64,000 bases of DNA from the NCBI GenBank assembly GCA_963790095.1, contig CAWBNO010000012.1:146997-210996 (forward strand). Reading direction: 5' to 3'. The stretch's first letter is position 1. The number at the start of each line of letters is the position of its first letter. The notes below the pieces were generated by a model. It was not told where the DNA came from. It saw only the letters and a list, made by a program, of their open reading frames with translations, and did not search any database. Below, in pieces: positions 1 through 3,648 of the stretch. The translations under genes were made by a program, and so were the position numbers. Source of the stretch: an uncultured delta proteobacterium (GTDB lineage: Bacteria; Desulfobacterota; Desulfobacteria; Desulfobacterales; UBA11574).

Positions 1-736
1 GGATATTGTTTTCCAAAAGACGCAGGATCTGCATGCCGGCTTCTTTGGCCAGACGGATGCGGGCCGACATGACCGCCGGAATGGTGCCGTTGCCCGGAAG
101 GCCCATGCCCACGGCTTCCGTAAGGCAGTTCATGGAGTTGGCCGTAAACATGCCGGCGCAGGATCCGCAGGTGGGGCAGGCGGCGTCTTCCACCTGGGAA
201 AGCTGTTTTTCGGTCATCTCCCCGGAAAGGACCGCCCCCACGGATTCAAAGACCGTGATCAAGTCGATGGGGTCGGCTTTTTCAGGATGTTTTCCTGCCA
301 GCATGGGGCCGCCGCTGACCACGATGGCCGGCAGGTCGAGACGTGCGGCGGCCATGAGCATTCCCGGGACGATCTTGTCGCAGTTGGGCACCAGAACCAG
401 GGCATCGAATGCATGGGCCGTGGCCATGACCTCGATGGAGTCGGCGATGAGCTCCCGGCTGGCCAGGGAATATTTCATCCCTTCATGGTTCATGGCAATG
501 CCGTCGCAAACCCCGATGACGCCGAATTCGATGGGGGTTCCGCCCCCCATGTAGACCCCGGCTTTCACCGCGTCAACGATTTTGTCCAGATGAATGTGGC
601 CCGGGATCACCGCATTGACGGAATTGGCAATGCCGATGAGCGGCCGTTGGATTTCTGTATCGGTGTATCCCATTGCTTTGAACAGGGACCGGTGGGGTGC
701 TCGTTCTACGCCTTTTTTTACCACATCGCTTTTCAT
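1..736 (-). CDS. ilvD: dihydroxy-acid dehydratase, N-terminal ~245 codons (gene continues past the left window edge)
   Basis: Absent from the supplied ORF track (no stop inside the window). Minus-strand translation from ATG at 736 reads [50 protein letters not shown]...[31 protein letters not shown]...[19 protein letters not shown], the IlvD/Edd family pattern. GAGGAG SD at 746-751. Confidence 0.9.
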
Positions 737-750
737 TGGCTCGGTCTCCT

Positions 751-800
751 CAAAAAAAAACCGTTATCGGCCTTTGGGGCTGATAACGGTTTTTTTTTTG
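751..800 (-). terminator. intrinsic terminator hairpin (attenuator) immediately 5' of ilvD
   Basis: Minus-strand RNA reads A10-ACCGUUAUC-A-GCC-CCAAA-GGC-C-GAUAACGGU-U9. The U-tract abuts the ilvD SD. The flanking A-run and T-run make it formally bidirectional. Confidence 0.65.
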
Positions 801-825
801 GCTTGGTCAGAAAATTAGGCCATTA

Positions 826-915
826 TCAACCCTGTGCCTCGCAGTAGATAAGTACATCTACGACGAGGACGATAATAAGGCTAATAAGGTTGTTAATGGC
901 GAATAAATTTTTCAT
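826..915 (-). CDS. candidate ilv leader peptide, 29 aa (MKNLFAINNLISLIIVLVVDVLIYCEAQG)
   Basis: 14 of 29 residues are Leu/Ile/Val, including a run of 7. The stop codon lies inside an antiterminator segment (see finding). No convincing SD, hence moderate confidence. Confidence 0.45.
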   Translation of the reverse strand: MKNLFAINNLISLIIVLVVDVLIYCEAQG

Positions 916-1165
916 AATTGTCTACATCTTTGATTTAGAATACTCTACCTATTTGTTATGATTTAAATTGTCAAGCTTTTTTCTTGTTTTTTCTTGCAGT
1001 TTGCCCAACAGTGTCGAAATTTCCCACAAACTCCCGTTGCCGGCGAGCAAAGAAAAGAGCTTGGAAGGAAAGGACCCGGCGTTGGGGTCACCCCTGGAAG
1101 GGGATTGTTTTTCAATAGGTCAAGTGCCGAACATGGTGTGTTTATAATGAAAACGTGTTGCTCTT

Positions 1166-1217
1166 GGGTCGGACGAGCTAATATGCTTAAAATAAAGGTT
1201 TAAATTTAATTTTCGGG
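1166..1217 (+). repeat. unit-boundary direct repeat, copy A
   Basis: GGGTCGGACGAGCTAATATGCTTAAAATAAAGGTTTAAATTTAATTTTCGGG. Near-identical core to the copies at 1675, 2410 and 3624. Confidence 0.85.
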
Positions 1218-1645
1218 TTTTTTTCCAGAATTCCAACGAGCGTATACCATCGGAGTTTGAAATTTGCTGTCTGTATAAACTCCAGATGATGAATCATTGC
1301 CATCTACGTGAATATCGGTTATGGTTTGATATTGGTCGGTTATCGGATAGGGTATCTATAACTGTACATTTTTGCCATGGTCATGGGCTGACAGATCGAA
1401 CTCCATTATAATTTTTCCTGAAGCTGTCTTTGCCCATACATTAGAAGATAAAATCAGAAAGGTAATGGCAGTAATGTAAGTTAAGATATTTGCCCAAGGC
1501 TGGGCCCTCTGGCCCCGGATATTTACTTGAATGAAATATAATAATGATCTTGATATGAAAAGGTCAAATATTTAATATCCATAAGAAAGTCCAACAAATA
1601 GAATATTTCTATAAAGATAAAAAGGCACAACAAATCATTGAAGAA

Positions 1646-1738
1646 GGACCGACCCTAAAGCTTTGTATGCTTTAGGGTCGGACCAAGCTAATATGCTTAA
1701 AATAAGGATTAAAAATTAATTTTGGGGGAACATTTAAG
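1646..1738 (+). repeat. unit-boundary direct repeat, copy B, with an extra upstream inverted arm
   Basis: GGGTCGGACCAAGCTAATATGCTTAAAATAAGGATTAAAAATTAATTTTGGGGGAACATTTAAG from 1675. Bases 1646-1661 (GGACCGACCCTAAAGC) pair 15/16 with 1669-1684 across a 7-nt loop. Confidence 0.85.
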
Positions 1739-1844
1739 ACGTAGAATGACATTTTCCATAAATTGGGAATTAGACACCGCTATTCACCATTCAAGATGGG
1801 GTAGCATTCGCCAAAAAATGGTAGATCAAAAATAGGAGAATCTC

Positions 1845-2396
1845 ATGTTTAAAAAAATTCTATTATTTTCCATATTGTTAATTTTGTTTGGTTGCCAACA
1901 AGAAAAAACCGAATGGAATCCTATCTTCGAGGAAACGGGCTTTGATTATATTAACGTTGGCTTAGAGCGGTCGTTATCATTGATAGATGACGCATATTTA
2001 GAAGCAACCGAAAACGAGCAACCCTCTATTCAAGAAAAGCTATCCCAAGCTAAACATAGGCTGCTTGAAATAAAAGACTACTATGTTCCACTTACCACCG
2101 TGAGGCAAAAAATATACGATGCCGAACGATATTACAAATTGGAGGATATTAAAAAATCGAAAAAATTGCTCGAAGACTCAAAATCGATAATAACATCATT
2201 AGATTTGACAACAAAAAGCGAGAGTTTTGACAAGGTAATTTTAGACTTAAACTCAATGATCGATGAAGTAATTTCAACCTTTGACGAAAATTCAAAACCG
2301 AATACCAATAATAAAATGAAAATTTTAGGCGAGCATATAAACTTAATGCTTTTCAGAGGTGATCTTGTGCTTTCAGGGACTGAATTTGAGAAATAA
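1845..2396 (+). CDS. hypothetical lipoprotein
   Basis: 183-aa ORF with signal peptide and lipobox (LILFGC). GGAGAA SD ahead of the ATG. No recognisable family. Confidence 0.6.
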   Translation: MFKKILLFSILLILFGCQQEKTEWNPIFEETGFDYINVGLERSLSLIDDAYLEATENEQPSIQEKLSQAKHRLLEIKDYYVPLTTVRQKIYDAERYYKLEDIKKSKKLLEDSKSIITSLDLTTKSESFDKVILDLNSMIDEVISTFDENSKPNTNNKMKILGEHINLMLFRGDLVLSGTEFEK

Positions 2397-2409
2397 CTGC
2401 TGCGCTCTG

Positions 2410-2660
2410 GGGTTGGACCGAGCTAATATGATTATAAGCCATTTCAAAACCTTCCATTCGTTGGCTTGAGCCTTTTGTAAAGCGCTAAGCTCGCTGTGCT
2501 AAATTTGTAGAACTCGGGCTAACACCCTTAGACAGCTACAAATTTTACGCGCCGCATCGCTAAGCGCTTTTCGACAAAAGACTCAAAAATCACTCACCGG
2601 AAGGTTTTGAAATGGCTTCTAAAATAAAGATTAAAATTTAACTTTGAGGTGCCATTTAAG
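2410..2660 (+). repeat. unit-boundary direct repeat, copy C, split by a 185-bp insertion
   Basis: Left part 2410-2434 is GGGTTGGACCGAGCTAATATGATTA. Right part 2620-2660 is TAAAATAAAGATTAAAATTTAACTTTGAGGTGCCATTTAAG. Joining them restores the consensus. Confidence 0.8.
2435..2619. mobile_element. MITE-like non-autonomous element (about 185 bp, long imperfect palindrome)
   Basis: Perfect 20-bp terminal inverted repeats AAGCCATTTCAAAACCTTCC (2436-2455) and GGAAGGTTTTGAAATGGCTT (2599-2618). The interior is also self-complementary. TA on both flanks (2433-2434, 2620-2621). No ORF. Confidence 0.55.
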
Positions 2661-2727
2661 GCTTGGCGTGACGATTTTGATAATTTAAAGGCGCTTTTAA
2701 AGGGGATCGGAAGAAAGGTTGAATTTT

Positions 2728-3648
2728 ATGGAAGAGAACCCTAGAACTTGGGCGGCACAGCGGGGTGCGATCAAACGGGCAGAGCATCAGCTCCTGGATC
2801 ATCCCAAGGTCTTGAATGATGCCCTCGCACTTCGCATCATCGGCAAAGATAGTGATTCGATAATGGAAGCTGAAATACTTCAATCCAAGGCCTCGCCCCT
2901 GTCGCCGTGCCTGCGAGCTACCACCGTCGTACGAAGTCGGTTTGTGGAGGACAAACTCGACCTCGGCGTTCGACGTGGGGTATGCCAGTATGTCATTTTA
3001 GGTGCAGGTCTCGACACCTTCGCCTACCGAAATCCGTATCCCGAAGGCATACTGCAGGTGTTCGAAGTCGACCACCCCATGACCCAGACGTGGAAGCGAG
3101 ATCGCCTGGAGGAAGCCGGGATTACACCCCCAAATGATCTAACGTTCGCACCGGTCGACTTTGAAACCCAGACCCTCATGGAGGGGTTGGGGGATGCCGG
3201 CTACGATCCAGGCAGACCCACTTTTTTTTCGATGCTCGGTGTGACGCCATATTTGACCATGGAGGCGGTGATGGCGACCCTGGGTTCCATCGCCATGGCC
3301 CCGGAAGGAAGCGAAATCGTCTTCGATTACATGATTCGGCCGTCTTTGCTAAATTCTGATCAGCAATCGTTCTTCCAAGCGTTTTCCCAAAAGGTCGCAT
3401 CGGTTGGAGAGTCGTGGCAAACATTCTTCGATCCTGAGGTGTTGAAACAGGATCTTCGGGCCATGGGGTATGGATATGTCGAGGACAGTAGGCCGGAAGA
3501 GATCGATGCTCTCTACTTCAAAAACCGAAAAGACGGGCTTCGGGTCTGGAAATTGACGCATTTGATGAACGCCAGGGTTGGAGATGTCAAGGATGCTGCT
3601 GAACATGCCCCTTTGGGGTCCTGTGGTCGGACCGAGCTAATATGCTAA
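2728..3648 (+). CDS. class I SAM-dependent methyltransferase (leucine-carboxyl/O-methyltransferase-like family)
   Basis: Motif VILGAGLDTFAYR plus EVDHP are typical of this family. The last 8 codons and the stop lie inside repeat copy D. Confidence 0.8.
   Translation: MEENPRTWAAQRGAIKRAEHQLLDHPKVLNDALALRIIGKDSDSIMEAEILQSKASPLSPCLRATTVVRSRFVEDKLDLGVRRGVCQYVILGAGLDTFAYRNPYPEGILQVFEVDHPMTQTWKRDRLEEAGITPPNDLTFAPVDFETQTLMEGLGDAGYDPGRPTFFSMLGVTPYLTMEAVMATLGSIAMAPEGSEIVFDYMIRPSLLNSDQQSFFQAFSQKVASVGESWQTFFDPEVLKQDLRAMGYGYVEDSRPEEIDALYFKNRKDGLRVWKLTHLMNARVGDVKDAAEHAPLGSCGRTELIC

Follow-up and report, generated by a model that had tools for sequence, protein, structure and literature searches.

The leaders of the enterobacterial ilvGMEDA (ilvL), ilvBN (ivbL), trp, leu, his, thr and phe operons are the classical cases of attenuation, and the T-box leaders of Bacillus ilv-leu operons sense uncharged tRNA directly and need no open reading frame (ORF). 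T-box leaders of ilv-leu operons are also mentioned in a study of Staphylococcus aureus, in which an attenuator peptide for the ilvDBNC-leuABCD-ilvA operon, and derepression of the operon upon amino acid limitation, were shown experimentally (PMC5794164). The actinobacterial ilvBNC leader and the upstream ORF (uORF) of the ilvB-II motif were predicted by comparative genomics and subsequently tested by mutation (PMC1262725, PMC10272879, PMC11857589). Here we examine a 64,000-nucleotide (nt) stretch of DNA from an uncultured delta proteobacterium of the Desulfobacterales (GenBank assembly GCA_963790095.1, contig CAWBNO010000012.1), referred to below as the window, in which a short ORF rich in Ile, Leu and Val codons and a terminator hairpin directly precede ilvD. 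We regard it as very probable, from the sequence and its relatives, that this element is a ribosome-mediated (leader-peptide) attenuator that adjusts read-through into ilvD, ilvB and the genes behind them to the amount of charged Ile, Leu and Val tRNA available.

All parts of the element lie on the minus strand. The leader ORF (826-915, with its AUG starting at 915) has 29 codons and a UGA stop and encodes MKNLFAINNLISLIIVLVVDVLIYCEAQG, which contains 14 Ile, Leu or Val residues, seven of them consecutive (L13-V19). Its regulatory run extends over codons 10-23 (847-888), with Leu, Ile or Val at 12 of the 14 positions. Segment 1, GCCAUUAACAACC (888-900), corresponds to codons 6-10 and thus adjoins this run; its partner, segment 2, GGGUUGAUAAUGG (820-832), holds the leader stop codon at 826-828. 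An alternative partner for segment 2, CUUAUUAGCCU (878-888, codons 10-13), is the one selected in the folds of four related loci (L001, L003, L004 and L005). Nested within helix 1:2 is an inner hairpin, CCUCGUCGUAGAUGUA...UAUCUACUGCGAGG (834-870), for which a putative role as an RNA polymerase pause hairpin may be considered. Segment 3, CCGUUAUCAGCCC (777-789), serves both as the 3' arm of the antiterminator and as the 5' arm of the terminator, and segment 4, GGCCGAUAACGG (761-772), followed by nine U residues (752-760), provides the terminator 3' arm and U tract (together 752-772); the arms of the terminator hairpin are CCGUUAUCAGCC (789-778) and GGCCGAUAACGG (772-761). The U tract ends 16 nt before the ilvD ATG. 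These coordinates and counts agree in every case with the initial annotation, including the 13-bp pairing of segments 2 and 3 with two G-U pairs and the pairing of segments 1 and 2 over 12-13 bp. A feature absent from that annotation is a run of ten A residues on the 5' side of the terminator stem (790-799), which is able to pair with the U tract and thereby to lengthen the stem; an A-rich run at this place is found in the relatives also and is conserved across the family. The A/U pairing makes the hairpin look bidirectional, in that a terminator scan calls the plus strand too and the covariance model described below matches the reverse strand weakly.

The mechanism that we propose follows the textbook scheme. 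Transcription would start about 20 nt upstream of the 29-codon ORF and proceed through segments 1 and 2, a spacer, segments 3 and 4 and the U tract. With branched-chain amino acids (BCAAs) plentiful, the ribosome would reach the UGA inside segment 2 and cover that segment, segments 3 and 4 would pair, and transcription would end 16 nt before ilvD. If charged tRNA for Ile, Leu or Val were scarce, the ribosome would stall within codons 10-23 and hide segment 1, leaving segment 2 free to pair over 13 bp with segment 3 before segment 4 is made, so that no terminator would form and ilvD and the genes behind it would be transcribed. In an untranslated leader, helix 1:2 and the nested hairpin could form first, favoring termination. 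The translation of the ORF, the transcription start, the pausing and the response to BCAA supply are thus predicted steps. The ORF, terminator, alternative pairings, geometry and downstream operon, which are the defining features of classical leader-peptide attenuators that can be tested on sequence, are all present.

The element shares with the enterobacterial leaders a short, promoter-proximal ORF with clustered and multivalent Ile, Leu and Val codons, mutually exclusive pairings 1:2, 2:3 and 3:4 with an intrinsic terminator, and biosynthetic genes for the sensed amino acids downstream. It differs from them in showing no similarity of sequence or covariance model, in its occurrence in a Desulfobacteria lineage, in the stop codon inside segment 2, the strong hairpin nested in 1:2 and the A tract beside the terminator, and in the operons that it heads (ilvD-ilvB, ilvB or cimA). 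The resemblance to S. aureus lies in the Ile/Leu-rich leader peptide and the terminator behind it, which directly precede ilvD at the head of a BCAA operon; however, the sequence of this Firmicutes leader is unrelated, its proposed antiterminator sequesters the poly-U tail and not the 5' arm of the terminator, and CodY acts there too (PMC5794164). A conserved uORF with BCAA codons and alternative hairpins is likewise a feature of the actinobacterial ilvB leaders, which belong to another lineage and to another sequence and structure family; no Rfam family was matched here, regardless of whether Rfam lists the ilvB-II motif. With T-box leaders the element has in common a terminator/antiterminator switch placed before BCAA genes and responding, as predicted here, to tRNA charging, but it matches no T-box model and contains a conserved ORF instead.

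Without constraints, positions 745-915 fold into helix 1:2 with its nested hairpin together with helix 3:4, at -62.9 kcal/mol (z = -8.0 against shuffles), and the terminator-state fold has -59.4 kcal/mol. Helix 1:2 with the inner hairpin has -35.1 kcal/mol, the inner hairpin alone -19.3 kcal/mol, and the core of 3:4 -18.4 kcal/mol, or -24.3 kcal/mol with the A:U extension; for the 13-bp helix 2:3 the values are -19.5 kcal/mol as a duplex and -18.0 kcal/mol as a hairpin. The alternative 2:3 and 1:2 pairings are beyond chance: the strongest duplex that segment 3 can form within the 119 nt before it has -20.1 kcal/mol, as against -8.4 +/- 1.9 in 2000 dinucleotide shuffles, none of which reached the observed value, and the strongest duplex of segment 2 within the 82 nt before it has -17.3 kcal/mol, as against -9.5 +/- 2.0, with three of 2000 shuffles reaching it. 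Since masked folds of the full leader cannot reveal the switch, the behavior of the switch was followed in a transcript truncated before segment 4. A ribosome stalled in the Ile/Leu/Val run allows 2:3 to form in the window and in almost every relative; in the window this helix forms at this stage with and without a stalled ribosome. A ribosome placed on the stop codon leaves the terminator alone to form.

The relatives used for comparison were the loci of close ilvD homologs, one genome per species, chosen solely by ilvD protein similarity. The best match, 91% identical, comes from a metagenome-assembled genome (MAG) of an uncultured delta-proteobacterium, and the list consists mostly of Desulfobacterales and Desulfobacteraceae. 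The same peptide, terminator and promoter stand directly before ilvD in 15 of the 30 closest loci, which are of Desulfobacterales type and include Desulfatitalea alkaliphila M08but (L012) and a Desulfobacula MAG. In the remaining loci ilvD lies mostly inside a larger operon, behind leuD-like or cimA genes; in four of them (L007, L009, L016 and L017) it follows a leuD-like gene in a larger operon and has no leader of its own, indicating that the position of the attenuator tracks the head of the operon and not ilvD itself. A covariance model built from 15 leaders, with the terminator state as its structure, found a single copy in the 64-kb window and three further copies at L018, L019 and L021, about 2 kb upstream of ilvD and before cimA-ilvD-ilvB, bringing the genome-derived copies to 18, all of Desulfobacterales type. 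The model had no match in the Syntrophales, Smithellaceae, Firmicutes and other loci of the ilvD-homolog set. One further locus, from a Desulfatiglandales MAG whose ilvD is 82% identical (L010), also lacks a model match, but about 50-80 nt upstream of its ilvD (locus positions ~2920-2990) it retains GGGCTGATAATAATG, which resembles segment 2, and behind it a small hairpin with a run of T residues, perhaps a variant of the element that has degenerated or diverged.

Metagenomes were scanned by the terminator hairpin alone (CCGTTAYCAG, a loop of 3-16 nt, GRTAACGG), which returned 120 contigs. About 46 of these match the model over its full length, on the element's own strand, with E below ~1e-6, a few more matched less well, and all 48 matches inspected have an ATG-started ORF rich in Ile, Leu and Val that stops a short way ahead of the hairpin. 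Within the loci and contigs sampled here, the family looks confined to genomes of Desulfobacteria type. On some contigs the element or its hairpin occurs twice, at distances of 270-1220 nt (L105, 4588-4767 and 5358-5537; L137, 6037-6066 and 7257-7286; L155, 4542-4563 and 4816-4837), which suggests tandem attenuators or neighboring regulated operons. Altogether 61 matches were aligned to the model. The initial annotation had made its attenuator reading depend on conservation in relatives; that comparison has now been made, and the peptide, the terminator and both alternative pairings are kept, with compensatory changes, in 61 relatives, which supports the reading.

Several lines of evidence suggest that the ORF is translated. 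The ORF was recovered by script in 56 of the 61 leaders, and in four of the other five the model match began inside the ORF, which is visible in full upon inspection. Between the aligned AUG and segment 2, all 56 are free of stops in the ORF's own frame, as against none and 17 in the other two frames. Ile, Leu and Val make up 49% of the residues (22%, 17% and 11%, respectively), and in nearly all 56 members the stop codon falls either within the 13 nt of segment 2 (at +4 or +7) or 2-5 nt beyond them (at +15 or +18); it is always within the segment or at most 5 nt past it. The segment-2 nucleotides GGNYUGRUAAUGR are conserved in two reading frames, giving either Gly-stop or Gly-Leu-Val/Ile-Met-Ala/Thr-stop, and the constraint is therefore on the RNA and not on the peptide. 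The geometry fits a stalling device: in the window the last regulatory codon, I23, lies 17 nt from segment 2, so that a ribosome with its A-site at any of codons 10-23 (reaching ~+14 nt, the footprint sizes being assumed values) halts short of that segment, and across the family stalling at almost all Ile, Leu and Val codons would keep segment 2 free (median fraction of such codons, 1.0). Segment 1 is itself made of Ile and Val codons in many members, for example GUC AUU AUC AG pairing with CUGAUAAUGAC, and hence the sensed codons are the very segment that a stalled ribosome would hide.

These observations bear on the possibility that the product of the ORF is a small, hydrophobic membrane peptide with a function of its own, for instance one resembling type I toxins or an accessory peptide, that it has its own terminator, and that the pairings with this terminator are incidental. 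The leader peptide does resemble a single transmembrane helix, one family member shows a weak, sub-threshold match to the transmembrane family PGPGW (E = 0.01), and leader peptides with functions in trans are known, such as peTrpL (PMC7298713). Yet a membrane peptide would not be expected to let its C-terminus change with the frame in which segment 2 is kept as RNA, nor to vary so widely in length (21-41 amino acids) and in sequence outside the Ile/Leu/Val run; Phe, Met, Trp, Ala and Cys together account for just 11% of residues beside the 49% of Ile, Leu and Val, searches of Pfam and NCBIfam with four representative leaders gave no family match, and in every case the element has a promoter before it and a gene of BCAA biosynthesis behind it. 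The three-way covariation of segments 2, 3 and 4 set out below would be meaningless in a plain gene terminator. We consider a membrane peptide of this kind very improbable.

Plain alignment with MAFFT and RNAalifold recovered the terminator alone and left the coding part out of register, so the covariance-model alignment of the 61 leaders was used for the analysis of base pairing. The antiterminator is not part of the model, and nevertheless helix 2:3 is paired in 92.8% of cells, as against 18-56% when the partner is slid by 1-3 columns, and 26 of its cells are changed on both sides, as against 8.9 +/- 2.3 in shuffles. Columns 179/244, for instance, hold GC in 37 and CG in 13 sequences, and columns 185/240 hold AU in 38, GU in 12 and GC in nine. 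Helix 3:4 is paired in 94.2% of cells, with seven pairs varying on both sides; here columns 244/258 hold CG 33 times and GC 19 times, and columns 240/262 hold UA (42), UG (9) and CG (8). Columns 240 and 244 of segment 3 thus covary with both segment 2 and segment 4, and such joint change of one position with two competing partners is the pattern expected of a switch. Helix 1:2, towards whose structure the alignment leans, is paired in 76.7% of cells with nine of 14 pairs varying on both sides, and in the nested inner hairpin all 13 pairs do so. The frequent G-U pairs would make sense only as RNA transcribed from the minus strand and not as a DNA palindrome.

The last point weighs on another explanation, according to which read-through is set not by the ribosome but by a factor bound to the conserved palindrome CCGTTATCAG...CTGATAACGG, either a transcription factor using it as a DNA operator or, as with TRAP or PyrR, a protein recognizing it in the RNA. 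In its favor, the stem is unusually invariant: every one of the 18 copies from genomes, which were obtained without selection on the hairpin, has CCGUUAYC (CCGTTAYC in the DNA). However, on the opposite strand, or in a palindrome acting as DNA, the G-U pairs of both helices (3:4 and 2:3) would become C-A mismatches, a U tract follows the stem in all members, and a model with only a protein leaves the conservation of the Ile/Leu/Val-rich ORF and the placement of its stop unexplained. The invariance would follow more simply from the Ile and Val codons of segment 1 (AUUAUC, GUCAUUAUCAG) together with the mimicry among segments. Across the family, segments 1 and 3 both approximate NNGUUAUCAG and segments 2 and 4 both approximate CUGAUAAYGG, a near-fixed core that may result from an interlock: the Ile/Leu/Val codons are segment 1, segment 2 has to be complementary to it and also to contain the stop, and segments 3 and 4 imitate segments 1 and 2, respectively. 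A protein-binding site as the basis of control seems to us highly unlikely.

The genes downstream of the element are BCAA biosynthesis genes. In the window, ilvD (1-751, including a Shine-Dalgarno sequence GAGGAG at 746-751 and the ATG at 734-736) is cut by the window start after its first 245 codons; its product is a dihydroxy-acid dehydratase (NF002068 and TIGR00110, E = 1e-105 and 6e-98), with scores under the cut-off solely because the protein is truncated at the window edge. The initial annotation took ilvD alone as the target, which proved to be an artefact of that edge: among the relatives with the element directly before ilvD, all 14 examined have ilvB starting 20-170 nt (mostly 50-90 nt) after ilvD. 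The ilvB product is the large subunit of the biosynthetic acetolactate synthase (TIGR00118; 825 bits against a cut-off of 538 in L001), and the regulated unit is accordingly predicted to be the whole operon that begins with ilvD-ilvB. At L018, L019 and L021 the head gene encodes the citramalate synthase CimA (TIGR00977; 751 bits against a cut-off of 450), and in the metagenome matches every identifiable gene directly behind the element is ilvD, ilvB or cimA. The same module therefore heads ilvD-ilvB, ilvB-first and cimA-first operons. A translational control that would hide the ilvD Shine-Dalgarno sequence was considered and rejected, GAGGAG being outside the hairpin.

The citramalate route, on which cimA acts, leads to Ile. 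This touches on the question of whether an attenuator of the same architecture might report general translation capacity or a single amino acid, most likely Ile. Ile is the commonest residue of the leader peptides (22%), the cimA-type leaders contain runs such as NNIIVII and IIIPIIIDII, with cimA lying on the route to that amino acid, and the Ile/Leu/Val-rich leader of S. aureus responds mainly to Leu (PMC5794164). On the other hand, Leu and Val codons are also abundant and are conserved in the run (LISLIIVLVV), and ilvD and ilvB serve all three amino acids. We think a single-amino-acid or general-capacity signal unlikely, and it is in any case a refinement of the attenuator explanation and not a true alternative to it.

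As to the promoter, the hexamer TTGACA is read as the -35 element at 969-974 and is kept in the relatives: nearly all 61 members have it, perfect or with one mismatch, at a similar spacing from the leader AUG (~50-60 nt upstream in most, up to ~85 nt in some cimA-type leaders). Relatives usually have TAnnnn 17-18 nt from it; the candidate -10 element in the window is TAGGTA (946-951), with a 17-nt spacer and two of six positions matching TATAAT. The earlier description of a TTGACA accompanied by a weak -10 is thus borne out on both counts. The predicted transcription start is at ~936-940, about 20 nt before the leader AUG, and the conserved TTGACA upstream of that AUG places it before the ORF and not downstream of position 826. 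An assignment of the hairpin as the terminator of an upstream gene was rejected, as there is no minus-strand gene within ~1 kb upstream and a conserved promoter is present.

Not all observations favor attenuation by a leader peptide, and the following weigh against it. In the window both the -10 element and the Shine-Dalgarno sequence of the leader are weak. The Ile, Leu and Val codons of the leader are not rare in this genome, and the hypothesis of a rare-codon run is not supported. The invariance of CCGUUAYCAG/GRUAACGG in the metagenome subset is partly circular, its members having been picked by the hairpin core. The sequence does not single out Ile, Leu or Val as the amino acid sensed. As to the energetics, when the complete leader is folded at equilibrium with the ribosome-covered stretch masked, the terminator wins at every ribosome position, and helix 2:3 is stronger than 1:2, such that the ribosome-free equilibrium before segment 4 already favors 2:3. 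Since the terminator is thermodynamically favored once segment 4 exists, the whole decision must be kinetic, as in classical attenuators. The ribosome-free preference for 2:3 likewise implies that the branch in which no translation gives termination depends on kinetics, and that termination in replete cells must rely mainly on the ribosome covering segment 2 at the stop codon.

Two further features of the region surrounding the leader should be mentioned. A start-stop pair, ATG-TAG, precedes the leader AUG by 6 nt (922-927 on the minus strand); L001 and L116 have the matching ATG in frame with the leader, and the extension would read MQVMMKN.... Upstream of the leader promoter, a repeat of ~60 nt occurs in two good and two partial copies (1159-1217, 1669-1727, 2404-2437 and 2608-2649), within an AT-rich (31-40% GC) and ORF-poor region that also contains a 24-nt inverted repeat (2432-2455 / 2599-2622) and, overlapping one copy, a terminator-like hairpin on the minus strand (1649-1681). 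The repeat could be a MITE-like element (miniature inverted-repeat transposable element), represent small RNA genes, or be of another nature.

Searches against described families returned nothing related. Among the leader families and T-box of Rfam 15 there was no relevant match in window positions 1-3000 at E values up to 10, and none at the gathering score in nine related loci; four representative leaders matched no leader-peptide family of Pfam or NCBIfam at E up to 10. A T-box or riboswitch was rejected as an identity for the element, given the lack of a model match and the presence of a conserved ORF. A 2004 reconstruction of regulons in delta-proteobacteria does not mention ilv attenuators (PMC545781), and PMC4833913 holds nothing specific to such an element. 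We found no description for Desulfobacterota or for cimA in the literature consulted; an earlier in silico prediction in delta-proteobacteria is possible, for instance in the broad attenuator surveys of Vitreschak et al. (2004) and Lopatovskaya et al. (2010). The initial annotation knew of no description of the mechanism for ilvD alone or in this lineage; an ilvD-first operon under such an attenuator has been described in S. aureus (PMC5794164), and for the lineage no description was found in the literature consulted. The novelty is therefore in the lineage and the family, not in the gene order, and the mechanism is that of the textbook.

The occurrence of one module with a near-fixed core before at least three BCAA operon heads (ilvD-ilvB, ilvB and cimA) invites a broader interpretation, which we offer tentatively and hold to be possible but doubtful: that the element represents an uncatalogued, regulon-wide RNA family, its core frozen by codons and stop, and that for the first time a leader-peptide control would be proposed for the route to isoleucine through citramalate, maybe with a trans-acting partner recognizing the invariant hairpin. 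The element does not change the understanding of attenuation itself. It does offer a clean natural case of the sequence constraints that lock an attenuator, with regulatory codons that are also segment 1 and a stop codon inside segment 2, and the 61 sequences, with covariation in all helices, provide a seed alignment for a new RNA family. For genome annotation, the element marks the starts of operons as well as small ORFs that are missed by gene callers. The presence of a single module on ilvD, ilvB and citramalate synthase operons points to a coordinated control of the shared pathway and of the Ile-specific citramalate branch. The attenuator proposed here would thereby provide a concrete regulatory mechanism for BCAA biosynthesis in the Desulfobacteria, mostly uncultured sulfate reducers with little-known amino acid regulation.

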